DNA of 64,000 bases, taken from an uncultured Verrucomicrobiae bacterium. GTDB taxonomy: Bacteria > Verrucomicrobiota > Verrucomicrobiia > Limisphaerales > Palsa-1400. Location: the NCBI GenBank assembly GCA_963764165.1, contig CAVXRD010000004.1, forward strand, positions 464,164-528,163, given 5' to 3'. The notes under the pieces are model-generated. The model did no database searches, was not told where the DNA came from, and saw only the letters and a list, made by a program, of their open reading frames with translations. The position numbers and the translations under genes are program-made. Shown one piece after another: positions 4,718 to 49,919 of this stretch (its first letter is position 1; each line of letters opens with the position of its first letter).

Positions 4718-5113
4718 ATGACGAAAGTAGCCCTTTTGCAATTGGCCCAGGCGACCGCCGCAACGGTGGTCACCGGGAGCGCGTCCGCCCTGGCGGCGGA
4801 TCAGGCGATGGTGAATGCCTTCGTCGGCACCGGCAATCCGGCGACGGATTATCCCGGGTTCAAGCAGAGTTTCGGCCGCGAGCTGCAAAGCTACCGCCAA
4901 GCTGCACAAGCCGACGCAGCGCCCGCGACCGCACCCGGCGCAGGCCCGAGGACGCAGGCGATCTCGGCTGAAGTCTTCGCCAAATTGCCGCCTGACATGC
5001 AGGCTCGATTGGTGGCGGCCAACCCGGCTCTTGCCAATGTGGTTGCGGCTGCGCCCGCGCCTGTATCCGCAACGGCTGCGGCTCCAGTTGCATCAGCGCC
5101 ACCGGCAGCGTAA
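4718..5113 (+). CDS. hypothetical Ala/Pro-rich phage protein
   Basis: ORF tightly packed after 4090..4716 and followed by an intrinsic terminator. Confidence 0.4.
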   Translation: MTKVALLQLAQATAATVVTGSASALAADQAMVNAFVGTGNPATDYPGFKQSFGRELQSYRQAAQADAAPATAPGAGPRTQAISAEVFAKLPPDMQARLVAANPALANVVAAAPAPVSATAAAPVASAPPAA

Positions 5114-19858: not shown

Positions 19859-19952
19859 TTACGATTTTGGCGGGGTGTGGTGCGTGGGGAAATCCCATGA
19901 CAGGGTTGAATTTTCCCCTCATGAATCACCCGCCGAAAATCTGAAAGTTAAT

Positions 19953-20895: not shown

Positions 20896-21269
20896 AACAA
20901 TCCGCATCAATTCAGTGCAAATTCGCATTCCTCCCATTCCTCGCATGCCTCCTATTCTGCCATGCCTGCACAACGGTCGTTCCGGAAAAGACCGAAGCGA
21001 AAGCCCCCAGCTTTGACGGCGGGGCTCAAAACAGCGGCTTCGAAGGTTGGACCACGAACACCCAGACCGGCGCCGTGTATGCCACATTGACCAGCCACGC
21101 CCGCGACCGCTACAACGCGCTTATACAAGCCTACGGCAAGCGTTTCGCGCCGCCGTTGGTCAAAGACGCCGGACTCATCCCAACAGCCACAGGCTGGCAA
21201 ATCGACTTGCAGCATCTGGCTAATTTCGCGACCATGAACCGCTGGAAAAAAGAAGCCGTCAAACCCTGA
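20892..21269 (+). CDS. putative lipoprotein (GTG start)
   Basis: VKQSASIQCKFAFLPFLACLLFCHAC is a signal-peptide/lipobox-like N-terminus. It shares a 23-bp identical coding segment with 20201-20223. Confidence 0.45.
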   Translation: MKQSASIQCKFAFLPFLACLLFCHACTTVVPEKTEAKAPSFDGGAQNSGFEGWTTNTQTGAVYATLTSHARDRYNALIQAYGKRFAPPLVKDAGLIPTATGWQIDLQHLANFATMNRWKKEAVKP

Positions 21270-31596: not shown

Positions 31597-32262
31597 TCAG
31601 CGGCCAAGATACTTGAGCACCGCTTCCGTGCGGCTGTGGACGTGGAGCTTCTCATAAATCGTGCGAAGATGGGTGCGCACGGTTTCGAAACTTATTCTCA
31701 GAAGGTCCGCAATTTCCTTGTAGGAATGGCCTTTGGCCAGAGCCGCCAGCACTTCCTGTTCGCGCTCTGTCAAATTAACAACGGCTGACGCGTTGCGCGC
31801 GTCTGCCGGGAGTTCGCGGACGTTCTGGAAATACTGGACGACGCGGCGGGCGATTTGCCGGGACATCGGCGCTCCACCGGCGTCCACTTCGCGGATGGCG
31901 TCCAGCAGCTTATCCTTCGAGGTGCGCTTGAGCAAATATCCCGTCGCGCCAGACATAAGCGATTTGAAAATCTGCTCGCTGTCCTCGTAAACGGTTAGCA
32001 TGAGGACGGGGAGCTTGGGCGTAAGCTCTTTGAGCTGGCGGACGCAATCGGTGCCGAGCATCCCGGGCAGGTTTATGTCCATCAAAACCACATCGGGGCG
32101 ATTGGCTGGAATGCCGCGCAGCGCGGCGAGGCCGTCGGGATATGCGGCCTGGCATTGGAAGCCCGAGGCGCTGTTCAGCATCGCCGTCAAGTTGGCGCGC
32201 AGATTCGGATCGTCTTCCACCAGGGCAACTTGAATCGGTCTGTTCACAGTCCGCTTATTCAT
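31597..32262 (-). CDS. NarL/FixJ-type response regulator (REC + LuxR HTH)
   Basis: VALVEDDP...DVVLMDINLPG receiver motifs. C-terminal LTEREQEVLAALAKGHSYKEIADLL LuxR-type HTH. Confidence 0.85.
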   Translation of the reverse strand: MNKRTVNRPIQVALVEDDPNLRANLTAMLNSASGFQCQAAYPDGLAALRGIPANRPDVVLMDINLPGMLGTDCVRQLKELTPKLPVLMLTVYEDSEQIFKSLMSGATGYLLKRTSKDKLLDAIREVDAGGAPMSRQIARRVVQYFQNVRELPADARNASAVVNLTEREQEVLAALAKGHSYKEIADLLRISFETVRTHLRTIYEKLHVHSRTEAVLKYLGR

Positions 32263-32312: not shown

Positions 32313-35300
32313 TCACAAAATCGAGTTAAGTGGAAAGGTCAGGACGACACGCGTCCCCTTCCCCGGTTCGCTTTCCAAATGCGCTTCTCCGCCGTCCTCT
32401 GCCAGACGCGCCCGCATGTTTTCCAAGCCGTTGCCGAGCCCCTCCGATTTCGCGATGTTGAAACCGCGGCCGTTGTCTTCCACTTCAAGAGTCACGCGCT
32501 GTTCCTGGAGTTTGATGCGCAGCCAAACTTCCGTTCCATGCGAATGCTTAAGAGCATTGTTAAACGCTTCGCGCACGGCCAAGAAGACGTTGTGGCGAAC
32601 GTCCGCGCGCAACGGCACGGCGGGGAAGACGTCGGGCACTTCCTGCCAGCAGCGGATTTCGGTATACTCAAAAAACTCGTCGCTGAAACGGCTGACGTAT
32701 TCGGCGAAACTCACCAGCGTGTCGTTTTTTGGGTTGGTGGCCCAGACGATTTCGTCCAAGGCCTGCACCGCCACTCGTGCCTGGCTGCCAATTCGCTCCA
32801 AACGATTCTTGACAAGGTCTTTGTTCCCGGCTTCGTTCAATCCGAGATCGCTCAATTGCGAAACCTGCGTCAACACGCCGCCGACGTGGTCGTGCATGTC
32901 CTTCGAGATTCGCAGCCGCTCGCGTTCGATCGCGTTGAGCGTTTGCAATCGCAGCAACCGGCTCGCGTAGCGGGCGCGCAGCACCCACAGCAGCAAGCCC
33001 GCCAGCATGATGAACAGCGCCGAAAACACCATGAACCGGAACCACGCCGTTTCCCAATAATACGGCTGCGCGCTCACCGCGAGGACGGCGTCGTCATCAC
33101 TCCAGACGCCGGCGGCGTTGCAAGCCTGGACGTGGAACGTGAATTCCCCGGAAGGCAAGTGCGGATAATAAACCGTCCGGCGCCCCAGCGCTTCCGTCCA
33201 GGCATCGTCCAATCCTTCGAGACGATAGCGGAAGAATATTTTCTCGGGAGCCGAGAATTCCAGCGCGGTGTAGTGCAATTCCAAATCACGCGGCCCGGGC
33301 GGAATTATCAATTGCTTTCGCGTTTTTCCAAAACGGCCGGCCACCGTGAAATTCGTGGAGACTTGGGTTCGCCCATTGACAAGCAGTTCCTCCAACACGG
33401 CTTTCGGCGGCGGCTTTTCGGCGCCCTCATTGTCCTGATTGAGAAAGACCAATCCGTGAACGGTGGAAAAACAGATGAGGCCGGATTTCGTTTTCAATCC
33501 CGCCGGACAGAATCCCCCGGAACATTCGTCGGCAGGCAAGCCGTCGTTGAGGCTGAATTGCCGCGCATGAAAAAACGGGAGCGCTCCGTCAGAGCAGTCA
33601 ATTAAATTCTTCCTGGCAACTTTGTAAATGCCGGAATCGCACCCGAGCCAAAGAAATCCATGATCGTCTTCGACGATTTGTGAGACGGTGCGTGGCAAGA
33701 GGCCCTGCTCCGGCGTGAACGTGGTGGTTTTGCCATTGCGCCAGCAGCTTAGTCCCCCGCCCTCCGTGCCGATCCAAAGCGTCTGGTCCGGATCCAGATG
33801 GAGCGCGCGAACGGAAATGCTGGCCAGGCCATTTGTAATCGCGAAAATGTTCGGGTTTCCCTCGTTTACCCGCTTCACGCCGCTATCGCTGGTGCCCACC
33901 CACAGGCTTCCATCGGGCTGGACGGCAAGGCAGGTCACAGAACCATGCGTGACTCGCCCCGGGAACTCCGTGAAATGCCCGCCCTGCCAATGCACCAGTT
34001 TCCCGCCGGTCGTGCCAAGCCAGAAACCGCCTTTCCAATCATTCTGGAGCGCGATGACAAATACATTCTTGAGCCAGGATTCATTGGTGAAGCAGCCTTC
34101 GAGCTGATTGTTATGCCATTGCAGCAATGACCCATTGCCACCCCACCAGACCGAACCGTCGTCGGTCGCCAGCACCGGACCAACCTCCGCGTAGTAATAA
34201 ATCTGCTCGCCAAATGGCGCTGGGCGAAATTGGCGCATTTCCGAAACATCGCCGGAATACAAGCTGCCGCCCACCGTGCCAACCCACAGTTTGCCGTCCG
34301 ACGTCTGGGCCACCGACCGGGCGAAATCGTTGGTCAATCCTTGCGCGCCTGCCACGACCAGCACATTTCGTTTGCTCAGGCGATTCAATCCGCCGGTTCG
34401 CGTCCCCACCCAGAGATTGCCATCAGTGTCCGGATAAAGGGAACGGATGTCATCGGCGGAAAGATGGTCCGCGCGGCGCAGGCTGGAAAAATGCCCGTTG
34501 TCGAAACGGTACAAACCTTCGTCGAGTGATCCGGCCCACATGGTTCCTGCCGAATCCTCAGCGAAGCAGCTAATGTAAGCGAAAGGCAATCCGTTGGATT
34601 CGTTGTAAACCTGCCATTCGTTGGTCTCGCGGCAGAGAACGGCGCCGTTGCCGATGCTGATCCAGAAGCGGCCCTGCCGATCTTCGTAAAGGCTGCGGCC
34701 CACCAATTTCTCGTGGTCCGGGGGACCGGGGCACCGCTCCAATTGCCCGCCCGTTTCGACCATGAGACCATCGCCAACGCTGGCGATCCACATGCTTTTT
34801 CCATCGCGGCTTCGCAGCAAATCGTGAATGGGCGAGCGAAGCAAATTGGGGAACGTCGGAACTTCCACCGATTTCCCATCGCGGCAAATCAACAAACCGC
34901 CGCGCGTGCCAATCCACATTTGGCCCAAAGAATCCTCTTGCAGGCAATTGATCGAATCGCTGCCCGAAAGATGTTCCGGGTCGGAAATCAGATCGATATG
35001 CCCATCCTGCATCACACACAATCCCGCGCCATCGGTGCCAATCCAGAGCCGCCCCTGTTTATCTTCGCAAAGGCATGAAATATCGACGCTCGAAAGTCCG
35101 CTTTCCAACCCGAGAGTTTTGAAGCGCACGCCGTCGAAGCAAGCCAGCCCATCGCGCGTGCCCAGCCACATATAACCGTCCTTCGTTTGCACGATTGCGG
35201 TGACGGTGTTTTGAGGCAGGCCGGCTTCTGTTCCCCACGAGCGAATAATCGGGGTTTGAGCCGGGCCGGTGGAAATTTCCGCACCGGACAAAAGGCTTGG

Positions 35301-35357
35301 CGGACAGACTAACTTCAAGACCGCGACAAGAACGAGTAATCGAAAAAGCGAACGCAT
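32313..35357 (-). CDS. sensor histidine kinase with periplasmic two-component-regulator-propeller/Y_Y_Y domains and HisKA_3/HATPase_c
   Basis: Signal peptide. Repeated WIGTxxGL propeller motifs. One TM. ERLRISKDMHDHVG H-box. C-terminal ATPase motifs (NALKHS, DNGRGF, GLGNGLENM). Confidence 0.85.
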   Translation of the reverse strand: MRSLFRLLVLVAVLKLVCPPSLLSGAEISTGPAQTPIIRSWGTEAGLPQNTVTAIVQTKDGYMWLGTRDGLACFDGVRFKTLGLESGLSSVDISCLCEDKQGRLWIGTDGAGLCVMQDGHIDLISDPEHLSGSDSINCLQEDSLGQMWIGTRGGLLICRDGKSVEVPTFPNLLRSPIHDLLRSRDGKSMWIASVGDGLMVETGGQLERCPGPPDHEKLVGRSLYEDRQGRFWISIGNGAVLCRETNEWQVYNESNGLPFAYISCFAEDSAGTMWAGSLDEGLYRFDNGHFSSLRRADHLSADDIRSLYPDTDGNLWVGTRTGGLNRLSKRNVLVVAGAQGLTNDFARSVAQTSDGKLWVGTVGGSLYSGDVSEMRQFRPAPFGEQIYYYAEVGPVLATDDGSVWWGGNGSLLQWHNNQLEGCFTNESWLKNVFVIALQNDWKGGFWLGTTGGKLVHWQGGHFTEFPGRVTHGSVTCLAVQPDGSLWVGTSDSGVKRVNEGNPNIFAITNGLASISVRALHLDPDQTLWIGTEGGGLSCWRNGKTTTFTPEQGLLPRTVSQIVEDDHGFLWLGCDSGIYKVARKNLIDCSDGALPFFHARQFSLNDGLPADECSGGFCPAGLKTKSGLICFSTVHGLVFLNQDNEGAEKPPPKAVLEELLVNGRTQVSTNFTVAGRFGKTRKQLIIPPGPRDLELHYTALEFSAPEKIFFRYRLEGLDDAWTEALGRRTVYYPHLPSGEFTFHVQACNAAGVWSDDDAVLAVSAQPYYWETAWFRFMVFSALFIMLAGLLLWVLRARYASRLLRLQTLNAIERERLRISKDMHDHVGGVLTQVSQLSDLGLNEAGNKDLVKNRLERIGSQARVAVQALDEIVWATNPKNDTLVSFAEYVSRFSDEFFEYTEIRCWQEVPDVFPAVPLRADVRHNVFLAVREAFNNALKHSHGTEVWLRIKLQEQRVTLEVEDNGRGFNIAKSEGLGNGLENMRARLAEDGGEAHLESEPGKGTRVVLTFPLNSIL

Positions 35358-35790
35358 CCTTTTGGCGTTAGGGCAGTCGCAGCATACCCAGACAGCGCAA
35401 CGCAGGCAAGACGCTTCATTAAGCCGGAACGATTCGGTTGGATTTGGGAGCGCGGCCGTCCCGGTCGCTCTGGCCGGCGTCTCGCCGGACAGCCTGGCAA
35501 ATTCTTGGCGATCACTGTTTGAAAAATTGCCTTTGCAAAAAGAGTTTTCGGCGGGACGCCGAAAACAGCGGTCGAGACGACCGCGCTCCTCGAAACCAAT
35601 TTGCCTCCCAAATATTATTGAGGGTTACACTCCCGGCGCGTTTGCAATCCGTTTGGCCGCAGACGGCGTCGGACAAAAGAGCCACAGTGCCAGATCAAGC
35701 CAGCCGCGCGATCAGTAGGGCATTGAGTCAACTATAATAATTAGGCGGGAACCCTCTGGATCGGCCTATTATGCTTTCCAAAAAACAGGT

Positions 35791-35830
35791 GTGATTTACT
35801 GAGATTTGGTGAGATTTGCTGAGACTGGGT
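35791..35830. repeat. four tandem 10-bp units (GTGATTTACT GAGATTTGGT GAGATTTGCT GAGACTGGGT)
   Basis: Read directly; helical-turn phasing; about 90 bp left of the hexamer array. Confidence 0.6.
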
Positions 35831-35917
35831 TGGAATCCGAGGCCCTTGTCTCTTTTTGACTCGCTTCGCCAAATCGGCCATTGGGTGGCATATGTATACA
35901 TACCCCCCTAAAAAGCC

Positions 35918-35963
35918 GTCACACCCGTCACAATGTTGTCAATCAACGACTTAGTCCGTCACA
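35918..35963. repeat. GTCACA hexamer array, left part (H1-H3)
   Basis: GTCACA at 35918, 35927 and 35958. The array continues after the IS at 37314, 37324 (cTCACA) and 37337. Confidence 0.7.
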
Positions 35964-35966
35964 AAT

Positions 35967-37302
35967 GGTTCCTCCACATTTTCAGTGGAATTAGTGCCGG
36001 GCTCTGGCTATGCCTTGGGCATGACGCCAGAAAAATTATTTCACGAATTGTTGGGACTCGGAATGAAGTGGGAAGTCACCGAAAGCCGTTTTGAATCCAG
36101 CAGCGGGACGGTATCCTTGGAAATCCGTGAAACCTCGGAGCTATGGCCCACGCTTCGCTGCCCCAAGGACGGCGGATTGGTTTCTTGCTACGACCACACC
36201 GAATCGCTGACCTGGCGCCACCTCAATGTTTTCCAGCATCGCTGTGAGATCACCTGCCGGCTGCCGCGCGGCAACTGCCGCCAGTGCGGCCATGTCTTTC
36301 GGGTGCGCCCGCCTTGGGAGGGGTTGAGCACTCACTTCACCAAAGGGTTCGAAGCCTTCGCGCTCCTGCTCATGCGCGAGATGCCCATGGCCAAAGTGGC
36401 CGAGGTGACCCAGGAGAGCGACATGCGCCTGTGGCGGATGCTCTTCAAGCATGTGGAGGGCGCTTACGCCCAAGCCGATTTTAGCAACGTCTGCTGCGTG
36501 GGCGTCGACGAGATGGCCCTGCGCAAGGGCCAGCATTACATGAGTGTCTTTGCCGATTTGGCGGCCAAGAAGGTGATCTTCGCCACCGAAGGCCACGGCC
36601 ACCAGAACGTGGGAAGTGTTTGTCCAGGCCTTGGAGGCTCACAACGGCGATCCGCGCGCCATCACCCAGGTGAGCATGGATATGAGCGCGGGCTACCAGA
36701 AGGGAGTCCAGGAGAACTGCAAAAACGCGCGGGTCGTTTTTGATAAGTTTCACGTCTTGGCCAATGCCAGCAAGGCGGTGGACCAAGTGCGCCGGGCGGA
36801 GTCGCAGGTGGGCGGGCAGGAGGCGCGGGAGTCGCTGCGCAAGAGCCAGTGGCTCTGGCGCAAGAACCCGGAGAACCTCAACGAGGAGGAGGCGGCCCGG
36901 CTGGCCAAGATCGAAGAAAAAAATCTCTGCACCAGCAAGGCCTATCAGATGCGCCTGGTCCTGCAGGACATCTATCGCAGCCCCACCGCCGGAGAGGCTC
37001 AAAAGCGTTTTAAGATCTGGTGCCGCTGGGTGCGGTGGGTGGCGCGATTTTACAAGTCCTACATTTTCAAGGCCATGGTCAGGATGGCCGACCAGATCAC
37101 CGATCACCTGCAGGGCATCCTGGCCCACTGGAAATCGGGATTGACCAACGCCTTTATGGAAGGACTCAACAGCGTCTTCAGCGCTGTCAAACGCAAGGCC
37201 CGCGGGTTTCGTTCCCCCGTTTACCTCACCACCATGCTCTATCTGGTGGCCGGAAAACTCCGCCTCCCCCATTTCTAATTCCACTGAAAACGTGGAGGAA
37301 CC
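35967..37302 (+). mobile_element. ISL3-family insertion sequence (1336 bp) with 28-bp inverted repeats and an 8-bp TSD
   Basis: IRL GGTTCCTCCACATTTTCAGTGGAATTAG (35967-35994) against IRR 37275-37302, 27/28 matches. Direct repeat TCACAAAT at 35959-35966 and 37303-37310. Confidence 0.85.
36021..37278 (+). pseudogene. ISL3-family transposase interrupted by a +1 frame change near 36585-36592
   Basis: N-terminal zinc-finger-like CPKDGG...CRQCGH, then VDEMALRKGQHYMSVFADL. The reading frame jumps between ORF 35985..36743 and ORF 36616..37278 (DMSAGYQKGV...FDKFHV...). Confidence 0.8.
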
Positions 37303-37313
37303 TCACAAATACC

Positions 37314-37342
37314 GTCACAAACCCTCACACCGACCCGTCACA
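37314..37342. repeat. GTCACA hexamer array, right part (H4-H6)
   Basis: GTCACA at 37314, cTCACA at 37324, GTCACA at 37337. An inverted copy TGTGAC lies at 37400-37405. Confidence 0.7.
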
Positions 37343-37467
37343 AAATCGCCCCTGCCAGCCAGGCGCGCCCAAAACATGCCTGGCCGCAATATGAACTTGT
37401 GTGACGGGATTGTGGTCCAGTTTGGACATGCTCCTTCGTCGAGTATTGGGCTGGCGCCCGCGCGTGG

Positions 37468-37527
37468 GTGCAATGCGGTTTTTGCCGCAAAAAACAGAGG
37501 GTGCAATAGGGTGCAATAGCATGCAAT
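37468..37527. repeat. GTGCAAT repeats (three at 10-bp phasing) flanking the palindrome TTTTTGCCGCAAAAA
   Basis: GTGCAAT at 37468, 37501 and 37511; ATGCAAT at 37521; palindrome at 37479-37493. Confidence 0.6.
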
Positions 37528-38176
37528 GCCCCGCCGCAATTTGACGGGGCGGACCTGCGTGTCCGCCCAAATATTCAGTCCGAGCCCAGCGACAACCAAT
37601 TTACGGTGGGATGCGGATATGTCTTTGCGGCCACTCTGCGCACTCATCTTCTCTGCGCGAGAGTTCCTTTTGTGGTGCCATGAAACGCCATCGCGCGCGG
37701 AGTCGCCGAGAACGCAGAGATTCCTCGCCGCCTGACATGAACGCAAAATATCAAAGAACACGCCCTGATGGCGACAGGGTGAAAAATAACGCCGAAAGTC
37801 CTTCGTGTCAATTCAGCTTGTAATCGCACGTTTCTGTGGTATTGATGGTCTTGTGGCACGATTTTGGGGGAAAAATGCGAAAAACGGAATCTGGAACGCC
37901 CGAACTCAGGAGAAGTGATCGAAGTTGGACCCAAGCACATCGTTAAATTGTATGCCTTGGCCAGTGAGCGCCGTTAGACACGACATATTTGTAGCAACCA
38001 CGAAGAATGAGCCCCAAGCCCCGTAGGGCGCGACATATTGGCAATGTCGCTTTTGCACCAAAACCAAAAGACCGGGAAATTCAACGCAAGGACGCCAAAG
38101 CGCAAGGGCACAGCGCGGCAAAGCCGCAACCAAAAATAAGAGGAAAGCGCCGTCCGGTCTGGGTAAGATTGGATGT

Positions 38177-39778
38177 ATGCAAAACAAACCGCTTACCCAT
38201 GACGGCGCTTCCAACTCTTTTGTACACAAACATGCTTCCTCAATTCTAGGAGTTCTTTCGGGCTTTGATCGCCTGCGATTGCGCGGGACGCTGCGCCAGT
38301 TGTACGGCCCCCAGGTGATGGAGGCCTACTTGAACGCCTGCCACATTCTGATCAAGGATTTCAGCCAGTTGGTCGAACGGACCACCAAAGCGGTCAAAGA
38401 CAAAGCCAGGGCCCTGGCACAAACAGCCGGGCGGCCTTTTCTTTTCGTCCCCTCCAGCCAAACCAGCAAGGAGGAGGTGGCGCGCAAGATTGCCGCCCGC
38501 GATAAAATCACCGAGGGACTGATCGCCATTCTCAATTGCACGGAACCCTGCATGTCCTTTCAAGTCGTCGGAAACCCCCAAACCAAACACATTGAGGTGA
38601 AGGTTCAGCAGCGCAAGTGCAGCCATCTTTATTTCTATTTCGAGCATTCCAAGTTTGGCTTCATGCACCTGCGCCTGCAAACCTGGTTTCCCTTCCAGAT
38701 TAATATCTGCCTCAATGGCCGGCATTGGCTGGGAAAGCAGTTGGATCAGGCAGGCATTGCCTATCAAAAGAAGGAGAACACCTTTTTGCGGGTGGCCGAT
38801 ATGGGGCGCGCTCAAGGCCTGCTGGACCAGCAACTGCAAACTGACTGGCCCAAGGAGCTGGGCCGGCTGCTCAATGAGGTTCATCCCCTGCACCGGTCGA
38901 TTTGCCAGCCGCTGAACCTCAAATACTATTGGAGCGCTTCGGACACCGAATATGCCACCGATGTCATTTTCAAGGAGCCCGAGAGCCTGGCCCGGCTTTA
39001 TCCCAGCCTGGTTCACCATGCCATCAGTTCCTTTTCCAGCGCGGACGTGATGAGGTTTTTGGGCCGATACGTTCCCATCAGCACGGGCAGGGTGTACGGC
39101 CAGTTTGAGGGCGAAATCACCAGCGACACCAAACGGCGGCCGGAGGGCGTGCGGGTCAAGCACAGTCTTAACGGCAACTCGATCAAATTTTACGACAAGC
39201 AGGGCTCGGTTTTGCGGATCGAAACGACGGTGACGCACCCGGAGGAATTTAAAGTTTATCGCAAACCGGAAGGCCGGCCCAAGGAGGCCAAACGCTGGCT
39301 GACATTGCGCCGGGGGCTGGCCGACCTGAAACGGCGCAAAGAAATCTCTCACCGGGCCAATGAACGTTATTTGCAGGCGTTGGGATCCGTCAGCGGAACG
39401 GTGCCGCTGTTCCAATGGGTTGAAAAATGCTGCAAGCCCCTGCGGCAGGCGGGGCGGCGCTACCGCGCCCTCAATCCTTGGGCCCCGGAGGACGGACGCC
39501 TTTTGGAAATGGTCAGCCAGGGAGAGTACGCCCTCAACGGCTTTCGCAGTCGAGACATTCGGCAGGCCTATTTTCCCAGCCGGTGCGATGACCGCGAACT
39601 CAAACGCAGAATGGGCTGGATTGGACGCCGACTGCGGCTCCTGCGAGCGCATGGCTTGATCGCCAAAGTCAGCGGCACCCACCGCTATGTTGTCACCGAG
39701 AAAGGGCGCACCACCATTACTGCGCTCTTGACCGCCCGCAAAGCGGACGTGGACAAATTGACCAAACTCGCCGCCTAA
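38177..39778 (+). CDS. hypothetical 533-aa protein, probably associated with a mobile element (family not identified)
   Basis: Long, clean ORF between REP-like repeats in the island. The segment VRVKHSLNGNSIKFYDKQGSVLRIETTVTHPEEFKVYR is reminiscent of xYDK...LRxE motifs in replication-initiator/transposase-like proteins. Confidence 0.5.
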   Translation: MQNKPLTHDGASNSFVHKHASSILGVLSGFDRLRLRGTLRQLYGPQVMEAYLNACHILIKDFSQLVERTTKAVKDKARALAQTAGRPFLFVPSSQTSKEEVARKIAARDKITEGLIAILNCTEPCMSFQVVGNPQTKHIEVKVQQRKCSHLYFYFEHSKFGFMHLRLQTWFPFQINICLNGRHWLGKQLDQAGIAYQKKENTFLRVADMGRAQGLLDQQLQTDWPKELGRLLNEVHPLHRSICQPLNLKYYWSASDTEYATDVIFKEPESLARLYPSLVHHAISSFSSADVMRFLGRYVPISTGRVYGQFEGEITSDTKRRPEGVRVKHSLNGNSIKFYDKQGSVLRIETTVTHPEEFKVYRKPEGRPKEAKRWLTLRRGLADLKRRKEISHRANERYLQALGSVSGTVPLFQWVEKCCKPLRQAGRRYRALNPWAPEDGRLLEMVSQGEYALNGFRSRDIRQAYFPSRCDDRELKRRMGWIGRRLRLLRAHGLIAKVSGTHRYVVTEKGRTTITALLTARKADVDKLTKLAA

Positions 39779-39959
39779 AACTTTGCCAAAAATGAAGAGT
39801 TTTCCGAAATAGCACTGCAAGGTTTTGGAGACAGACGTATCAATGCAAATTCCTTTGCGATTTTGCAACTTTGCGCCCTTGCGTTTAAACGGAGGCGGAC
39901 GGGCCATTTTGCACGCCCCAGCCCTTGCAATGGCGCGTGAGGTTGACTAAAGTTCAGTC

Positions 39960-40274
39960 GTGAACGCTGTTGCGACACCGAACCATATTCACCTTGACGC
40001 CGAAGGGCGGGCCTGGATTGACGATAGCAACACCAAGGTTATCGAAGTTGTGTTGGATCACCTCGCCTATGGCTGGAGCGCGGATGAAATCCACGTCCAG
40101 CATCCACATCTTTCACTTGGGCAAATCCACGCCGCGCTTTCGTTCTATTTCGATCACCAGCCGGAATTCGACAGCCTGGTTGGGCAATCGCTTGAGCGGG
40201 CGAATAAGCGTGCCGCAGATTCCCAGGATTCACCCGGTCGCCGGCGGCTACGCGCACTGGGCAAGATTCGTTGA
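39960..40274 (+). CDS. DUF433-family protein (antitoxin-like HTH), GTG start
   Basis: IDDSNTKVIEVVLDHLAYGWSADEIHVQHPHLSLGQIHAALSFYFDHQPEFD matches the DUF433 pattern. Confidence 0.7.
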   Translation: MNAVATPNHIHLDAEGRAWIDDSNTKVIEVVLDHLAYGWSADEIHVQHPHLSLGQIHAALSFYFDHQPEFDSLVGQSLERANKRAADSQDSPGRRRLRALGKIR

Positions 40275-40381
40275 GCGTTCGTCTCTACATGGATGTCCAT
40301 GTTCCAGCGCAGCCCGCCAATTGTTCAATCGAGTCGAGTACCTGCCGACAGCGACCGATTTCCCCCTTGCGTTCATGCTGA
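40271..40381 (+). pseudogene. remnant of a DUF5615/PIN-like partner gene of DUF433
   Basis: A TTG overlaps the DUF433 stop. It opens (L)SVRLYMDVHVPA, typical of DUF5615 N-termini, and stops after 36 codons. Further fragments continue in another frame. Confidence 0.35.
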
Positions 40382-40386
40382 AAAGT

Positions 40387-40641
40387 ATGCACTTTTCATC
40401 CGTGAAGGCGACGCAGACAGAACTGCGCAGAGACACTGGCCGCATTTTAGGAACAGTGATTCATGGACACCGCTCCGTCGAGCTTACCCAGCACGGGCAA
40501 ACCGTGGCGGATATCCAGCCTCATGCAAAGCCATTAAGCGGCGCCGAATTTGCCCGCCGGTGGAAAAACCGCAAACCGCTGGACAAGGCAACGGCGCGAG
40601 AAATCGCCGCAGCGATCAAATCCGTAGGTCATCCTGCGTGA
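40387..40641 (+). CDS. Phd/YefM-type antitoxin
   Basis: MHFSSVKATQTELRRDTGRILGTVIHGHRSVELTQHGQTVADIQP fits the Phd/YefM N-terminal pattern. GTGA overlap with a vapC-like start. Confidence 0.65.
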   Translation: MHFSSVKATQTELRRDTGRILGTVIHGHRSVELTQHGQTVADIQPHAKPLSGAEFARRWKNRKPLDKATAREIAAAIKSVGHPA

Positions 40642-40769
40642 GGTTTCTCATTGATACTTCCATCCTCATCGAAGCCGAGCGCCGGAGTTTTGGCCTTGGC
40701 GCTGGCTGCAGAAGGCCGAGGAAGTTCATAAATGCGACGCGACTTGCCCCGTTTTGCCCCCTGAGGTGA
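40638..40769 (+). pseudogene. truncated and frameshifted VapC (PIN) toxin remnant
   Basis: Starts VRFLIDTSILIEAER (PIN N-terminal Asp motif). The sensible sequence continues in another frame (LGAWLQKAEEV) and is lost at about 40.8 kb, where the AT-richer insert begins. Confidence 0.5.
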
Positions 40770-40830
40770 GGCCCAATCCGCGCTGGAATTTCAAACCATC
40801 CTTGCAGTCGCATCCCATGAAATATATTAC

Positions 40831-41685
40831 TTGATGGTCAAGGCGTCTGTTACCCTCAGCCGCTTCGTCGCACATAGCATGAAGACAACACATCACGGAT
40901 ATTTTCAATCGCTAGCGCGTGAATTGGAGTCGCAAGCGTCACGCGTCCGCCAACTGATTGGTGACGGACATTGGGCCCACGACGGGCGGCATAAGGAAGT
41001 ATTACTCCAAAGTCTTATCCGTCGCCACTGTCCGTCGACCGTCCTTGTTAGCACTGGCTTTGTCGTTTCATCTAACGATCCCGAGGTTCGCAGTAAGGAG
41101 CAAGACGTGTTGATAATTAACACATCCACCGAAGCGCCATTATTTCACCAAGGAGACTTGACAGTTGTGTTTCCGCATACCGTCATTGCGGCAATTTCGG
41201 TTAAAACCACGATGAATGATGAAACCCTCAAAGATGTCGTCGACGGACTCGCCACTGTGCGGGAAACCGCGAGAGACTGTCAGTGCAAAGCAAACCGAAT
41301 CTGTTGCTGCGGATTCTTTTTTAACATAAAGCCGATGATTCGCCAAAAACCTGAGGCGATTTATAAAAGTCTTAAAAAGCACATTCGATCCCGGCCTATT
41401 AAACCACCGCTCCTAGAAGACGGCCTTCCTCATATTGCAGGTCCTGATGCAATCGTGGAAGCAAATGACCTGTCATTTCTGTTAGACTATACCGTTAATA
41501 ATAATATATCCGCTGCAAAAGTCCGCGGTTTCGATTGCCCGGGACTTTCCACCGCTGTATTTCTTTCATGTCTATTAGAACACATTAACTTCTTTTTTGA
41601 TCAAAGGCATTCGAAATTTAACGATTTACTTTCGAATCAACGGCTCGAAAGCATTTCGCCTCCCGAGTTTCAGATTTTACCCTGA
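40831..41685 (+). CDS. DUF6602-like protein (restriction-endonuclease-like core suspected)
   Basis: GRHKEVLLQSLIRRHCPSTVLVSTGFVV...SKEQDVLIINT...VIAAISVKTT matches my recollection of the DUF6602 pattern. The start is probably internal (MKTTHHGYF at 40879). Confidence 0.55.
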   Translation: MMVKASVTLSRFVAHSMKTTHHGYFQSLARELESQASRVRQLIGDGHWAHDGRHKEVLLQSLIRRHCPSTVLVSTGFVVSSNDPEVRSKEQDVLIINTSTEAPLFHQGDLTVVFPHTVIAAISVKTTMNDETLKDVVDGLATVRETARDCQCKANRICCCGFFFNIKPMIRQKPEAIYKSLKKHIRSRPIKPPLLEDGLPHIAGPDAIVEANDLSFLLDYTVNNNISAAKVRGFDCPGLSTAVFLSCLLEHINFFFDQRHSKFNDLLSNQRLESISPPEFQILP

Positions 41686-41695
41686 CTCTTCGCCT

Positions 41696-44600
41696 TCACG
41701 TTAAGCTTTGCACCGCGATTGGTCCCGCAAAAGCGATAGCAATATAAGCATGAGCAATCTCTCCCTGCCTCGGCCATCGCTCATGACGACTGAGCAAAAA
41801 ATCCCGACCGAATTCCTCAACTTTGAGGTAGTGCACTTCGGAATCACCGGTTATCACGCCCTGTACGGTCTTACGCACGCCCTCGCTATCGAGCAACACA
41901 GCACGAGGGTCATGCAACTGTTCCCGTGGAATCCGAGCCCTACGCAACTGAGAGAACATGGGCTCGGCCTCGGCCCACTTATGTTGTTGAACCAACGCGA
42001 CCGCGCATACAAATTTGTAAAATGGATCGCCGGAATATTTTGCTGTCGCCAGAACTGTTCTTCCCAATTCGAACAAAAATGCCCAATCAATAACGCGGTT
42101 TCGCACCTTAGAATCGTAACGGCTCACATTCCATTCGTAGTAGATGCTAGCCGCTGCCGCACACAAATCCCCCGACGGCGATAGGTTCTCCGCTTGAACC
42201 ATCTCAATGATCCTTTTACAATACGCAAATGCGTCGTTATATGCACTTCCCGCGTTCTTCTCGCGGGCCACATTTAACATTTTGCGCGCGGCTATAACAA
42301 AACCCTCTGGCCTCTTGAACTGCAGCCATAAGTCTTCGGCGCTCGCCTTAAGTTCGTCCAAAGGCGCCGTCCTTGCCTGCAATTTCCCCGATATGTCCTC
42401 CAAAAATTCAATATCTTTTGTTGGTTGGTCACGAGCTGGTCGCAATGGGTTCTTAAGTACAAGAAGTGACGAATCCACTGCGTCCAGCGCTTGATTCAAT
42501 AAAGTAAAAATATCCGCCGAAGCGATATCATTCAGTTCCGAAATCAACCTCAGCATAAGATTTGCCTGAACATGCACCGCCCGCGAATTAAAAAACGCAT
42601 CAGAACGCGCGTGGTCTAAATGACGCAATATCTCCGGCAAGCTCTCTTCGAGCCGTACGCGCCCAGCGTCCGCAGCATCGAGAATCGTAGCTGCCAAAGA
42701 CGTATGCACGTGCTCATCGGCTTCAACGCGGTCGGTGTACGGATAACTCCTCGTCACAAGCGCCGTTTCCAAAACCGACTTTGCGAATAAAGGATCATTC
42801 CCTTTTGACTTAATCCACAACCCTTTTTGATGAACTAACGTCCGGTCCGGTAGCGGCAACGCAGAAAGCGCAGTATCATAGAGCTGCAGTCCGTCCGAGT
42901 ACTCTAAATGGTTCAATTTGCTACAGGGAACCAATATACTAACAGAGAACTCCCTATAAACCAAACTCGTCCCGGTGCATGCTTTGAGAAGAGTCAAAAG
43001 ACGTTCGACCTCACCAGTATGTGCTAACTTGCCGCCGTTGATCGTCTCTATTAAAGTGCGCGTTACAACAGAGTTACGAGGTCTGTAGCATTTTGTTGCG
43101 CCATCTGGAGTCGCTTCACCATACAACAAGCCCCACGCTGGGCCCTTTTGATCAACCGCATCTACCCACTCTCGGTAAGAAATGTCTAATGCCGACACCA
43201 GCACCTCGACTGGCAGCGGCGTGTGGTAGTGATCGCACACCGCAGCCATCGCGTAAGCTTGCTTTAAGAAGGCCGAGGTTTTGTTATATGCACCGATAAT
43301 AACACGTGACAATCCACCCCGCTCTCCCAAACGCAAATATTCCTCTTGAATACTCGCCTCGATACTTTGTCGGGTCTTTGGCAAGAGCCAATATAGGAGG
43401 CCAAGCGTATCCGCCGTCCCGCGACTCGGGAAATTGGCAAGTTCAGCCTGCGCCTTGCCCTTATCAGGGAATACATTCAGGTGAACCAAATAATTTGGAA
43501 AGCTAGCTATCTCCTGCGCGTCGAAATCATCGAGCAAATTGAACTCGCGCTGCAATTCGAGCGTGCCAATCAAATCTTCAGGGTCGTTCGTCTTCCAGTC
43601 AGAAGTTCGTACAACAACGACAAATGTGCATCGAATACCGTTGTTTTGTGCGCTTGCGGCGATCGACGACACGGACAAAGAACCTAATCCAACTGGATCA
43701 TCAATAAAAAAGAAAACGCGCCGCTTATTGTCTGTAATACTGCTAAGTGTCTTAAAAAAATGACCTAGTGATGTTTGAACATTCGGATAAAAGGATCTAC
43801 GAAACCAAAAGACAAGATTTCCTTTAAACGCTAGGTCATACGCCAATCTTTTTGCTATCGTGGTTTTGCCGGATGCCGCGCTGCCAACCAGAGCGTACAC
43901 AGGCAATGCTCGAGTTATTCGTGGTGGTTTCAAAATACTGTCTTGCAATTGGTTCTCAATTGTCCGGCGGAAATCTAGCTTGTGAAAGAACGGATCCCAA
44001 GATGGAAGATTCGGGGAAAACAGCAAATCTAATAATCGCACCCTTTCTCCCTCGCTTATTTGCGATACAAGTTGCGCATTGACAACGGTGACGATATCAT
44101 TAAAAGGTATCAGCCGATCAAACTCTGATTCTTTCTTGTACAAGGCAAGTGGCTGCGTTTGTCCAGCTCCTTCCAAATCCTTCAATCGACTTATCAACTC
44201 GGGGAGACCTGCGTCCACAAAAACTACATGCAACTTTCCCGAGGTTAGCTGAAGAATAGCATTATACTCCTTTTGCGTAAATTCGGTCTTTACCAAAACC
44301 AGCGGATCTATGAAAGTCTTTCGGTCTGATAACATTTGCGACAAAAGATCAATGAAAGACCAAAGACTGCCTTTTAGGCCGAGGCATACGACGGGGTTGC
44401 CTTGCACCTTATCGGCAAAATCTTGAACGGCAAAACGCCACGTTGGGCGCCGCGCAGTGTAAATCAAGTCCGTGTATACGAAATGTTCTTCAGTATTACC
44501 AAGCAATTTAAATATTGGTACACACTTCGGCGGTAAAGGTTGGGGAAAATCCAGCACCTGTGTTGGAATCGACGCTGTAGGCTTTCGCTCTCGCTCTCTT

Positions 44601-44935
44601 AACAGTTCTTGATCAAAAATGGAATCTATAGCTAAGGAGATTACAGCAGACCATTTCAACGCGGAAATTCGTTTGATGTATTGATAGGCTTTCTGTCCTT
44701 TCAGGAATGCCTGAATAAACCCCTTTATGTCGTTTGGATCGATCCCCTGATCCACCGCGTGCTGTGCGTTCTGCAGATAGTTCTGAGTGCCATTCCCTCC
44801 CCATTTTGACGCGATCCCCGCTGACAAGTCGTGGTAAAAATCGCCTTCCGCGGTGATCCCGGGCCCGAAAATTAACCCCATCCGGCCGCGGAACAGCGGC
44901 TCGGCTTCGTCAATCGTAATGGTTTGCACGCCCAT
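41696..44935 (-). CDS. SIR2-like N-terminal domain / P-loop STAND NTPase / helical-repeat protein (Avs5-like architecture)
   Basis: GRMGLIFGPGIT (aa 17-28); ISLAIDSIFDQE (aa 99-110); KLLG (aa 143-146). Walker A GSAASGKT (aa 351-358) and Walker B VFFFIDD (aa 407-413). About 600 aa of helical C-terminal region. Confidence 0.7.
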   Translation of the reverse strand: MGVQTITIDEAEPLFRGRMGLIFGPGITAEGDFYHDLSAGIASKWGGNGTQNYLQNAQHAVDQGIDPNDIKGFIQAFLKGQKAYQYIKRISALKWSAVISLAIDSIFDQELLRERERKPTASIPTQVLDFPQPLPPKCVPIFKLLGNTEEHFVYTDLIYTARRPTWRFAVQDFADKVQGNPVVCLGLKGSLWSFIDLLSQMLSDRKTFIDPLVLVKTEFTQKEYNAILQLTSGKLHVVFVDAGLPELISRLKDLEGAGQTQPLALYKKESEFDRLIPFNDIVTVVNAQLVSQISEGERVRLLDLLFSPNLPSWDPFFHKLDFRRTIENQLQDSILKPPRITRALPVYALVGSAASGKTTIAKRLAYDLAFKGNLVFWFRRSFYPNVQTSLGHFFKTLSSITDNKRRVFFFIDDPVGLGSLSVSSIAASAQNNGIRCTFVVVVRTSDWKTNDPEDLIGTLELQREFNLLDDFDAQEIASFPNYLVHLNVFPDKGKAQAELANFPSRGTADTLGLLYWLLPKTRQSIEASIQEEYLRLGERGGLSRVIIGAYNKTSAFLKQAYAMAAVCDHYHTPLPVEVLVSALDISYREWVDAVDQKGPAWGLLYGEATPDGATKCYRPRNSVVTRTLIETINGGKLAHTGEVERLLTLLKACTGTSLVYREFSVSILVPCSKLNHLEYSDGLQLYDTALSALPLPDRTLVHQKGLWIKSKGNDPLFAKSVLETALVTRSYPYTDRVEADEHVHTSLAATILDAADAGRVRLEESLPEILRHLDHARSDAFFNSRAVHVQANLMLRLISELNDIASADIFTLLNQALDAVDSSLLVLKNPLRPARDQPTKDIEFLEDISGKLQARTAPLDELKASAEDLWLQFKRPEGFVIAARKMLNVAREKNAGSAYNDAFAYCKRIIEMVQAENLSPSGDLCAAAASIYYEWNVSRYDSKVRNRVIDWAFLFELGRTVLATAKYSGDPFYKFVCAVALVQQHKWAEAEPMFSQLRRARIPREQLHDPRAVLLDSEGVRKTVQGVITGDSEVHYLKVEEFGRDFLLSRHERWPRQGEIAHAYIAIAFAGPIAVQSLT

Positions 44936-45114
44936 CTGCTTCCGAGTACGAGACTACGCCCGAATATCCCGAAGAAGCAAACCCATTCTGCCTACTGATC
45001 CAGTTTCTGCTGACGCCCCTTTTGAACGCGATCTGGGTCGGTCCATCAAGGGTGAACGGCAAACGCGCATTTCGGATTTGGATTCTGCTTTGGCGCGGGT
45101 ATCCTCTGAGCGAC

Positions 45115-45389
45115 ATGCCCACCCGTGCCGCGAAGCCAAGGAATCGGAACGCGCAAGCCATAATTTTGCGACGACACATTGGTCGGTGGTTTTGGCTGCG
45201 GGGCGGCAGGACACCGCTCGCGCTCGCGGAGCTTTGGAGAACCTTTGCCAGACTTACTGGTTTCCGCTCTATGCTTATGTTCGGCGAAATGGGCGGCCTC
45301 CGGAAGGTGCCAAAGATCTGACGCAGGGTTTTTTTATTCGGCTGATAGACCATCAATCGCTGGCCAATGCCGACGGTTCTTATCCCTAA
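45115..45389 (+). pseudogene. 5' fragment of an ECF-type sigma-70 factor gene (frameshifted and truncated)
   Basis: HNFATTHWSVVLAAGRQDTARARGALENLCQTYWFPLYAYVRRNGRPPEGAKDLTQGFF is a typical N-terminus of PVC/Acidobacteria ECF sigma factors. The ATG at 45115 is in a different frame, and the ORF ends at the relB repeat junction. Confidence 0.5.
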
Positions 45390-45604
45390 AACTCATCCGC
45401 CAGCGAATTGCGGCGGGCGGGCGGGCTCAGAACCTCGTCTTCCGGGCTGTCTGCCTGGACAGGGAACGGGATGGCCCGCCGTGTCATGATCTGCTTGTAA
45501 AAAAGCTCCAATGCCGCCCGCGGTTTCAGGCCAATCTCTTCCAAGACGGCTTCAGCCTGGCGTTTTAGCACGGGGTCAATACGGCTTCTGGCTCCTGCGC
45601 CCAT
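45386..45604 (-). CDS. RelB/DinJ-family antitoxin, orphan copy (toxin gene lost)
   Basis: Near-identical to 52538..52756. Only about 4 codons of the mazF-like partner remain downstream. Confidence 0.65.
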   Translation of the reverse strand: MGAGARSRIDPVLKRQAEAVLEEIGLKPRAALELFYKQIMTRRAIPFPVQADSPEDEVLSPPARRNSLADEF

Positions 45605-45650
45605 GAGATCAATGTGGCCAAACTTAGCCTTCTGTCAAAAGCTCAAGCCA

Positions 45651-48822: not shown

Positions 48823-49140
48823 GGTTCCTCGCCATTTTCGGTGAAATGAGACAACTCGTTAGCCGTCGTTGCGGGACAACCCATTTGGAATCCAGGGTTG
48901 GTCTTTGGTTGGCCAAAGCTCGGTATAGTATATGGTCTCGAAAAAGGGGCAACACCCGCTACACGGTTGACCATCAACGAGATAAGGGGCAACAAAAATA
49001 GCAACAAACCCGCAACAGACCCGCAACATTTCTTCCCGCGCTGTCGGGTTGCATGAAACGCGGCGTCATTCCGTCGTTCCCTGAAATTTTCATCAAGATG
49101 CCCGCACCATCATTTGTTCCATTGAAGACAGTGAGGAACC
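48823..49140. mobile_element. MITE-like 318-bp element bounded by diverged ISL3-type inverted repeats and carrying a GCAACA hexamer array
   Basis: GGTTCCTCGCCATTTTCGGTGAAATGAG (48823-48850) matches the IS IRL at 23/28. 49113-49140 matches the IS IRR at 19/28. Flanks TGGCAAAT and CTGCAAAA are only similar, so there is no clean TSD. Confidence 0.45.
48949..49028. repeat. GCAACA hexamer array (H1-H6) with the same spacing as the GTCACA array
   Basis: Hexamers at 48949, 48958 (GCTACA), 48989, 49001, 49012 and 49023. Spacings are 9/31/12/11/11, against 9/31/12/10/13 in the IS-corrected 35.9-kb array. Confidence 0.7.
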
Positions 49141-49151
49141 CTGCAAAAGCA

Positions 49152-49179
49152 GCTACAGGCCCGCTACAAACCCGTTACA
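49152..49179. repeat. half array GCTACA-GCTACA-GTTACA at 11-bp phasing
   Basis: Starts 12 nt after the IRR-like end at 49140, as H4 starts 12 nt after the IS IRR at 37302. Confidence 0.6.
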
Positions 49180-49919
49180 TTTCATCTGAGCCGGGGCGAT
49201 TCAGTTCGCATGGGGAGCGCACGCGCCTCGCGTGCAGTGTTCCGCGCCCTCGCGGAACACATTTGACGGACAAACCAATTAGTGCGCCGAATTCTCGAAG
49301 GCGACTGGCGTGGGCGTCAGTCGTCCACACCCGAGGGCGGGTGTGCTCCCCGTGATACGAACTGCATCGTTCCGGCTAAGAGGGTTGCAATGGAATGAAA
49401 CCATGTGCTTTCATGGCGTTTTGGACATGCTCCTTCGTCGAGTTTGGGCTGCGGCCTGTCACAGACCCCAAATTGCCCCGCCGAGCCAGACGGCGCAACC
49501 ATATGACGAACCGCAGTAGGAAATTGCGTGACGGGATGTGACTAGCGGGAGGCCGATTTCTCACCGGCTTCTGATCAAGCTCCTCAGAGTCTAAACTCGC
49601 TTTGCCTTGATTCCAAATGCGGGGGGGCAAACTGAAATGGGAAGATTCTGCGCATTCAACCCGGCTTTGCTCGAATTGCAGCGCAAAGAGACGCTCAATG
49701 CCGCTAATGAACCAGCCTTCGTCGTCCTTCCAGGAGGGGGTTACGACCCGCGAGCCGGTCCCAATGGCGCTGCTCCTTCGAGCGTACGAAAGGAAATGGG
49801 GTGGCCGGTATGGCCCAATGATGTGACCGCCGTTACGAACGCTGTCGCTCAAATCGGGCCCTAAATGCTGCGAGGACGCCTGGGCGTGACGGACGGGTTA
49901 TTGCCCTGTCCAATTGTAA

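Follow-up and report, generated by a model that had tools for sequence, protein, structure and literature searches.

Arrays of phased direct repeats that are organised around a bend site, and whose repeats are specific to each element, belong to a mechanism class that is already known. Lambda and L5 have heterobivalent tyrosine integrases with arm-type binding sites; P1 parS combines a site for integration host factor (IHF) with specificity-determining hexamer boxes, and it is the P1 and P7 boxes that set specificity; and the RIP/BIME-1 elements of E. coli and the Correia elements of Neisseria are small, multicopy, non-coding modules in which repeated motifs flank a central IHF site, and they are targets of insertion sequences (IS). 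In the cluster K mycobacteriophages, the 11-bp arm-type repeats of attP come in pairs; pairs that lie across the core from each other are inverted, with a stem-loop separating them, and phage-specific base changes occur in all of the sites of a phage, the differing N-terminal residues of the integrase (Int) being the proposed readers (PMC3203893). In the origins of Staphylococcus aureus pathogenicity islands (SaPI), 6–12 penta- or hexanucleotide iterons directly follow rep on its 3' side, the centre is AT-rich and the Rep winged helix recognises the iterons in an island-specific way (PMC9371898), while in R1 parC a 39-bp promoter region is flanked by 5+5 direct repeats of 11 bp each and the site adopts a U-shaped fold (PMC2241845). 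The subject here is a family of GNNACA hexamer arrays in a 64,000-nucleotide stretch (hereafter the window) of contig CAVXRD010000004.1 from an uncultured Verrucomicrobiae bacterium, together with related arrays in a metagenome. An initial annotation of the window, made from its sequence alone, had proposed that the hexamers change from array to array while staying consistent within each; since SaPI origins and cluster K arms both have element-specific repeats, both of these known kinds show the phenomenon.

The window arrays are members of a family with conserved spacing and self-consistent hexamers. Array 1 is split by an IS; once the IS and one copy of its target duplication are removed, joining 35918–35966 to 37311–37342, a six-unit GTCACA array is restored with the claimed spacings of 9/31/12/10/13: GTCACA(35918)-ccc-GTCACA(35927)-atg-TTGTCAATCAACGA-cttagtcc-GTCACA(35958)-aatacc-GTCACA(37314)-aaccc-TCACA(37325)-ccgaccc-GTCACA(37337), in which the fifth hexamer reads TCACA. 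Direct reading likewise confirmed array 2 at 48949–49028, with spacings of 9/31/12/11/11, and a half-array at 49152–49179 (GCTACA, GCTACA, GTTACA), and the proposed homology of the left flanks (35826–35917 against 48884–48948) is visible in a MAFFT alignment. As a control for chance, any hexamer (≤1 mismatch) recurring at the array offsets was scored in the window with the IS removed and in dinucleotide-type shuffles (n = 20). Five registers scored 5/5 and two scored 4/5 on the + strand of the edited window, and in the unedited window every score of 4/5 or higher fell within array 2; the twenty shuffles had on average 0.0 registers at 5/5 and 0.2 at 4/5, and never reached 5/5. The arrays are non-random: the 5/5 layout score is absent from the shuffles, and the architecture recurs elsewhere.

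A metagenome scan with the centre pattern ACANNNTTGNCNATCAACGANNNNNNNNGNNACA, which required the exact centre motif, returned 15 loci, eight of them true arrays and seven chance matches. A profile hidden Markov model was then built from the true arrays and found more arrays within the same metagenome loci, giving at least nine further arrays beyond the window in all. Array 1 shares the GTCACA class with loci L004, L014 and L010a, and array 2 shares the GCAACA class with unit 3 of L002. The window half-array is of the GCTACA/GTTACA class, unit 1 of L002 of the GTTACA class, L005a (L006, L009 and L012 are the same locus) of the GGCACA class, L010b of the GTAACA/GCTACA class and L005b of the GTAAC(G/A)/GTTACA class. 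All have a common layout: two units lie 8–9 bp apart, 31 bp across a centre lead to the third, and three to five units follow at 10–12 bp. The units flanking the centre are all head to tail, and an array totals six to eight GNNACA units. The unit itself is longer than the hexamer (approximately C-C/G-G-N-N-A-C-A-A/G-A-C-C); only its two N positions differ systematically between arrays, and G..ACA is constant throughout the family. Between pairs of units in the same array, NN identity was 0.68 versus 0.16 after permutation; 20,000 permutations gave no value as high as the one observed. The claim of array-specific, self-consistent hexamers at conserved spacing is thus borne out by further copies, in five hexamer classes and in unrelated contexts, and in the metagenome copies the spacing is kept and the hexamers have not drifted.

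The hexamers are embedded in a larger non-coding module of ~170–250 bp from chromosomes of Verrucomicrobiota-type bacteria, in which a palindromic A+T box is followed by a C-run and an A-run, two units of 9–10 bp, an 18-bp centre and three to five units. The A+T box precedes unit 1 by ~20 bp, in a genome whose GC content is ~57%, and the left end (A+T box, C-run, TAAAAAG) is shared by array 2, L010b and every GTCACA copy. GTCACA members additionally have a fixed 57-bp spacer with a hairpin, followed by two inverted units. Upstream, a block of 10-bp repeats accompanies the array both in the window (array 1) and in L004, and the hairpin and T-run to the left of array 1 have a homologous GTCTCTTTTT in L004 and L014 and an array 2 counterpart at ~48884–48915. 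Arrays that share a contig are always co-oriented and clustered (window, L002, L005 and L010), and the second locus of the window is a pile of module fragments of three hexamer classes, all on the + strand. A blastn search of the reconstructed module against plasmid and phage records gave no match, and Rfam, at gathering and E-value thresholds, returned nothing but tRNAs.

Purifying selection acts on the hexamers, including their two variable bases. The 95 nt from the C-run to the sixth hexamer (hexamers are numbered H1 to H6) are 94% identical among the four GTCACA copies, which lie in different genomic contexts, whereas the first 45 nt of the next segment are only 53% identical among the same copies, even as that segment is 57 nt long in 4/4. 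Since the spacer has drifted while the array has not, the hexamers with their NN bases, the sequences between units and the spacing are all under selection. The spacer hairpin is itself conserved, with three compensated pairs (RNAalifold). The contrast between hexamer conservation and spacer drift is the strongest support for the proposal that the variable bases may be read by a cognate protein with switched specificity; the three kinds of site suggested for it in the initial annotation (winged-helix regulator sites, iterons, and recombinase arm or transposase end sites) were all reasonable.

The centre, conserved across hexamer classes, appears to be a bend site rather than a promoter. Within it, AATCAACGACTTA (35941–35953) fits the IHF consensus WATCAANNNNTTR and is the sole match on either strand of the 64-kb window; a match recurs in L002 unit 1, L004, L005a, L005b, L010a and L014, and array 2 has a partial one. 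The centre and third hexamer had been read as a −35/−10 arrangement, which is not supported: the would-be −10 is NNACAA, and a sigma-70 consensus scan does not call it in array 2 or in the intact L004. The better description of the conserved centre is the IHF consensus, not a sigma-70 promoter. There is good support for viewing the arrays as phased sites that a sequence-specific protein would bind, grouped about a putative bend site. Annotation of the arrays as promoters, or as regulator sites of the histidine kinase or PKD genes nearby, should be avoided.

One module is present at one locus and missing from its orthologue. The exosortase of L010 has an orthologue, P0256, which is 82% identical and belongs to the window's own species; in L154, the contig carrying exactly P0256, the spacer between exosortase and DUF4230 is 179 bp long and aligns with L010 on both sides, with ~246 bp missing. 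The missing piece extends from the A+T box (TTATATAAT) through array L010b and a hairpin to a point ending in GCCGGATCCTCG. Its left edge, the A+T box, matches the place where L010a begins to resemble the other GTCACA copies after the tRNA, and this coincidence of the indel edge with the left end of the module marks the module as a discrete, dispensable and insertion-polymorphic unit. Other relatives carry NOV_C, toxin–antitoxin (TA) or HNH genes at the same spot, and this varied accessory content suggests that the exosortase/DUF4230 spacer may be an insertion hot spot.

Some copies are interrupted by an IS, by an element resembling a miniature inverted-repeat transposable element (MITE) or by a hairpin of repetitive extragenic palindromic (REP) type, without sign of repair. 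The IS in array 1 has inverted repeats of 28 nt (35967–35994 and 37275–37302) and an exact 8-bp target duplication, TCACAAAT, at 35959–35966 and 37303–37310; its transposase has zinc ribbon, helix-turn-helix (HTH) and DDE_Tnp_ISL3 domains according to Pfam, with a frameshift near 36600. It is thus an ISL3 member by its inverted repeats in the 25–30 bp range, its 8-bp duplication and its ISL3 DDE transposase. In the MITE-like element at 48823–49140, only the ends resemble ISL3 inverted repeats; a transposase is absent, and the interior is array 2 with its left flank. The register after its right end (CTGCAAAA-gca-GCTACA) equals that after the IS of array 1 (TCACAAAT-acc-GTCACA-aaccc-TCACA), which indicates that two different arrays have each received an ISL3-type element at the equivalent H3/H4 position and suggests that this IS group may prefer the putatively bent H3/H4 region as a target. 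In L010a, a 31-bp GC-rich REP-like hairpin, GCCTGCCCCGCCGCAGCTTTAGCGAAGGCGG, lies between H1 and H2 (L010 ~388–418, reverse strand). Hairpins similar to this insert also occur upstream of the L002 arrays.

No gene is common to all array loci, and none of the ~14 chromosomal arrays lies beside an integrase, helicase/rep, partition or transposase gene or has par genes downstream. Among the larger window open reading frames (ORFs) that were screened there was no integrase, replication or partition gene, and no transposase besides that of the IS. Module L010a starts 6 nt after the CCA end of tRNA-Glu and L010b lies between the exosortase and DUF4230 genes; L005 adjoins uvrA and a LysR-family gene, L014 a UPF0175 gene, L004 a MazE/PIN pair and L002 a pilC-like gene and, read by eye, a restriction-type gene. 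TA, restriction-type or other accessory genes stand to the right of the array at several loci. Arrays 1 and 2, L004 and L014 follow the hairpin and T-run of an RNA-like unit, whereas L010b and L005 have no RNA gene alongside. A putative small RNA lies at ~35735–35857, to the left of array 1. In the window, arrays 1 and 2 have this hairpin/T-run flank on their left in common, and the ~11 kb between them includes accessory genes and is partly of low GC: the stretch ~40000–46000, at 0.48–0.53 versus ~0.57 elsewhere, holds the DUF6602 and nSTAND NTPase genes and has the look of an island for defence or accessory functions. Copies in different contexts have ~250–360 bp of their non-coding flanks duplicated along with the array. 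Orthologues of the histidine kinase to the left of array 1 (64–65% identity) stand beside a sugar-utilisation cluster without an array, and since the orthologous loci lack it, the histidine kinase/response regulator pair was dropped as a candidate cognate regulator.

These copies are orphans, one of them is a ~246-bp indel between core genes, and another starts right after a tRNA; a shared RNA-like left flank brackets ~11 kb, the classes cluster, the arrays are co-oriented, and disruption is tolerated. For these reasons we favour, tentatively and as somewhat short of probable, the reading that the arrays are non-autonomous recombination-type sites of the integrase-arm or element-end kind, of mobile-DNA origin and acted on in trans, in which the hexamers would be the cis sites needed for propagation. 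Each unit (C-C/G-G-N-N-A-C-A-A/G-A) would bind one copy of a small sequence-specific DNA-binding domain; the two middle bases would choose the binding paralogue, while G..ACA would be common to the family. IHF or a similar bending protein would fold units 1–2 onto units 3–6 to give a single wrapped nucleoprotein complex, which would be the recombination-type site. The modules would then be non-autonomous pieces of integrative mobile DNA, served in trans by a protein encoded elsewhere and piling up at hot spots (3' of small RNA genes and at accessory-island borders), and the window copies would be orphaned and partly decayed. The arrays share several features with integrase arm sites: direct 10–11-bp repeats form pairs or triplets, an IHF-type site separates the groups, an inverted pair lies on the far side of a stretch that contains a stem-loop, and the layout is kept while one or two bases change throughout. 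Arm sites lie next to the 3' end of a tRNA or transfer-messenger RNA-type gene, and here one copy, L010a, follows tRNA-Glu. Unlike at arm sites, Phage_integrase is absent from the window and the array loci and present only at the viral locus L024, no common or duplicated core was found, the whole module is ~250 bp of non-coding DNA, and a single motif occurs in up to eight copies. Several observations weigh against recombination. The ~14 known arrays all come from the exact-centre scan, and the right boundary of the module is poorly defined. The lack of an integrase or transposase beside any member makes the trans-acting enzyme hypothetical. At the L010b/L154 junctions neither terminal inverted repeats nor a target duplication nor a duplicated core is clear, and, with no outgroup found among relatives, insertion and deletion are not distinguishable there. 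Finally, most viral arrays of like hexamer and layout adjoin primase/helicase genes, which is an origin-type and not an att-type context.

The viral arrays bear on the alternative that these are iteron-type origins of the SaPI/phage-inducible chromosomal island or P4 kind. In that case a self-loading primase-helicase would recognise the hexamers as iterons through its winged-helix domain, melting would take place at the A+T box or the centre, and the chromosomal copies would be decoys, or origins that are orphaned or depend on a helper. Viral contigs were scanned for GTCACA-3-GTCACA-N23-27-GTCACA-N4-7-GTCACA, which specifies 24 bases and has an estimated chance expectation near zero, and 10 loci were found; matches to a three-copy GCAACA pattern were too numerous in viral contigs to be informative. 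In six of the GTCACA loci two or three hexamers, a ~25-bp spacer starting TTGA and three or four hexamers stand immediately 3' of primase/helicase genes, namely Toprim with DUF5906/VapE (L019), prim-pol with D5_N and Pox_D5 (L021 and L028), a DnaG-like primase with a 645-aa protein (L025 and L026) and AAA_25 (L027); in L020 the array is at the start of a DnaB_C-like gene, and in L024 it lies between a tRNA and the 3' end of the Phage_integrase gene. The description of SaPI origins fits, with its short iterons, AT-rich centre and island-specific Rep (PMC9371898): the chromosomal arrays, too, have six to eight short, element-specific units in two groups around an A+T-richer centre, and they carry the A+T box upstream of unit 1 in a genome of fairly high GC (~57%). 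Unlike SaPI and P4 origins, they have no rep or primase-helicase gene alongside (0 of ~14 chromosomal arrays in the window and metagenome), a feature found only with the viral GTCACA arrays. Their units are all direct across the centre, whereas SaPI iterons are opposed on its two sides, and an inverted pair occurs only in the GTCACA class, 57 nt downstream. Their centre is a conserved IHF-type motif that was not found in viral contigs: the strict centre pattern had no match in 2.9 million viral contigs, and the 25 matches to a relaxed pattern were all due to chance. A ~246-bp non-coding piece that is present or absent between core genes would also be hard to explain as an origin, and we consider an origin unlikely for the chromosomal copies. 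In the viral contig L019, positions 4744–4952 hold two GTCACA arrays that diverge from each other, each with 3 + 3 hexamers and an A+T-rich centre of 25 bp that starts TTGA. On one side is the Toprim/DUF5906 primase-helicase gene and on the other a small gene whose match to a MerR-type HTH is weak; this stretch is probably the replication origin of that contig.

The geometry of direct repeats phased at 10–12 bp with an IHF site is equally that of host regulator sites (OmpR/PhoB-type or other winged-helix), in which an IHF-assisted promoter/operator would be served by a paralogous regulator per hexamer. A TATA-like box 7–8 nt upstream of the A-run could be a −10 with a start site reading into the array, the next gene on the right is co-oriented with the array at 4/7 loci, and the hexamers are under purifying selection. 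Yet there is no conserved regulated gene set such as OmpR/PhoB-type sites have: the neighbours (histidine kinase, PKD protein, uvrA, exosortase, TA modules, tRNA) share no function, the array is absent at orthologous sites, its non-coding flank is co-duplicated in different contexts, copies are interrupted by IS or REP-like insertions, and the sigma-70 scan calls no promoter at the centre, so that this explanation appears distinctly improbable. We give even less weight to centromeres of plasmid or phage type (parC, tubC, parS-like), with two direct-repeat sets for a small centromere-binding protein around a promoter or IHF site. R1 parC, whose DNA folds back into a U shape (PMC2241845), does have comparable sets of phased ~11-bp direct repeats with a short unique centre between them, but unlike parC or tubC the arrays have no par operon, par genes being absent downstream of every copy, and no sigma-70 consensus in the centre, and they are chromosomal, intergenic, multicopy and insertion-polymorphic. 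It is also very unlikely that the arrays are a structured RNA or single-stranded DNA element in which the hexamers serve as repeated seeds, or as stem halves pairing with inverted copies. H5/H6 of the GTCACA class can pair with the inverted H7'/H8', with predicted folds of −34 to −48 kcal/mol, and the spacer hairpin has its compensated pairs; against this, no inverted copies were seen by eye in the 120–200 nt after array 2, L010b, L005a and L002, Rfam gave no match, and base pairing would leave six identical single-stranded motifs unexplained. Least credible is a functionless minisatellite whose hexamers are alike only through slippage or gene conversion, a reading already disfavoured: H3–H6 form an imperfect 11-bp tandem repeat by Tandem Repeats Finder (TRF) and L002 has duplicated sub-blocks, but H1–H2 across the unique centre and the inverted pair 57 nt away have the same hexamer, the four GTCACA loci keep their hexamers far better than their spacer, and the architecture is conserved across classes.

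The family is not placeable in any described one, since it fails the defining context features of each and is a free-standing non-coding module. It resembles a classical DDE-type MITE in being small, non-coding, multicopy and polymorphic in presence, but has no terminal inverted repeats or target duplication at the L010b/L154 junctions, and the inverted pairs of the GTCACA class lie inward of the conserved left end. RIP/BIME-1 and Correia elements have palindromic REP units or terminal inverted repeats, unlike the six to eight head-to-tail units with class-specific bases found here. It is conceivable, if doubtful, that the arrays represent an undescribed class of non-autonomous element, with ~250 bp made up purely of binding sites (phased GNNACA units, IHF site and A+T box), paralogous site-specific proteins that move or use it in trans, and a two-base specificity code. 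In a bolder variant, they could be chromosomal decoy iteron arrays beside defence islands, titrating or hijacking the initiators of phages and satellites that share their hexamers. If such a two-base address code were true, the family would offer a natural series of matched DNA-site and protein specificities, with an architecture that is simple and fixed, from a phylum that has been little studied. In Verrucomicrobiota genomes the family is also a marker of insertion hot spots and of the borders of islands, and the identity of the partner protein would tell whether the orphan copies have a role in recombination, replication hijacking or defence.

Table 1. Features of the window around the two array loci
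Feature	Position	Strand	Basis or remark
Response regulator	31597–32262	−	
Histidine kinase	32313–35357	−	
10-bp tandem repeats, GGTGAGATTT-type, ~3–4 copies, after AAAAAACAG	35793–35824	+	TRF; same layout in L004
Hairpin and T-run, terminator-like; start of left-flank homology common to array 2	35839–35857	+	Terminator-like site call
Palindromic A+T box CATATGTATACATA (35889–35902), then C-run, then TAAAAAG	35889–35915	+	Conserved left end of module
Array 1, left part: H1 (35918), H2 (35927), centre, H3 (35958) and AAT	35918–35966	+	Direct reading
Conserved centre TTGTCAATCAACGACTTA of array 1	35936–35953	+	Kept across hexamer classes
ISL3-family IS splitting array 1 between hexamers 3 and 4	35967–37302	+	Inverted repeats and Pfam
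Array 1, right part: H4 (37314), H5 (37325, TCACA), H6 (37337)	37311–37342	+	Direct reading
Spacer 3' of array 1, exactly 57 nt, internal hairpin, ends ATATGAA	37343–37399	+	Length equal in 4/4 GTCACA copies
Two inverted hexamers, TGTGAC (37400) gggat TGTGGT (37411)	37400–37416	−	TGTGACggnnTGTGAC at the equivalent place in L004, L014 and L010a
IS-like element of the 533-aa protein	~38143–39823	+	Bounds from comparison with L017 and L018
533-aa ORF	38177–39778	+	
DUF6602 gene	40831–41685	+	
nSTAND NTPase, 1079 aa	41696–44935	−	
PKD/GloVer protein	45651–48626	−	
ISL3-derived MITE-like element, 318 bp, flanks TGGCAAAT and CTGCAAAA	48823–49140	+	Repeat family D2 and alignments
A+T box GGTATAGTATATGG then TCTCGAAAAAGGG, part of array 2	48922–48948	+	Direct reading and alignment
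Array 2: GCAACA, GCTACA, centre TTGACCATCAACGAGATA, GCAACA x4	48949–49028	+	nhmmer E = 4.5e-21
Third array, right half: CTGCAAAA-gca-GCTACA-ggccc-GCTACA-aaccc-GTTACA	49141–49179	+	Directly 3' of MITE-like right end
Fourth unit tail, GTCACA class: last hexamer, spacer homologous to 37343–37410, inverted CGTGAC/TGTGAC	49458–49542	+	Repeat family D1
Pilin-like genes	Right of second locus	+	

The 533-aa protein encoded to the right of array 1 had been proposed as a candidate binder of the arrays. This role is not supported: it is the sole gene of a separate, multicopy IS-like element of ~1.7 kb, two other copies of which have no array nearby. Homologues of the protein number more than 7,800 and lie almost without exception on contigs of ~2 kb, and several copies and fragments occur in the window's own genome; the protein has no sequence match in Pfam, NCBIfam or PDB, and no terminal inverted repeats are evident on the element. 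Its AlphaFold model (pLDDT 81) has no whole-chain match in PDB, and the high-probability partial matches in Foldseek are to winged-helix proteins only, including a MarR-family repressor (probability 0.98); a MarR-like motif was seen by eye at the C terminus. The element is an uncharacterised IS-like element that is unrelated to the arrays. A REP-like hairpin, CAGCGCGGCAAAGCCGCAACCAAAA, at 38109–38136 recurs beside copies of this element in L017 and L018, in the latter on both sides.

Two ORFs on the minus strand run across the arrays (37315–37761 and 49376–49852), and were rejected as their translations are unconvincing and non-homologous. A motif of 29–33 bp, TTTGGACATGCTCCTTCGTCGAGT(A)TTGGGCTG, occurs at 37421–37449 and 49420–49448 with 93% identity between the two loci, and module L010b has a related GAAGTTTGGGCTG near its right end. 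On the minus strand the motif reads as a Shine-Dalgarno sequence with ATG, after which there is no conserved ORF. A scan of genome contigs with the 20-mer GGACATGCTCCTTCGTCGAG from the 33-bp motif (37421, 49420) gave only one chance match, at a gene start in a Thermomicrobiales metagenome-assembled genome. Similarities involving CCATTT among module flanks, tRNA 3' ends and ISL3 inverted repeats are too short to be relied on.

The window and L004 also contain a second kind of phased repeat, with three to five contiguous 10-mers of GGTGAGATTT or AGGGTGCAAT type at 35793–35824, at 37498–37527 and, on the reverse strand of L004, at ~1300–1360. Each block is preceded by AAAAAACAG and followed by a hairpin, and the repeat sequence varies between blocks while the layout is constant; the blocks could be a small RNA or another binding array. 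Elsewhere in the window, two blocks of 9-bp repeats of CTCCCATTC type occupy 20190–20224 and 20923–20957, one inside and one just beyond an ORF (19875–20669) with a weak match to a holin family.

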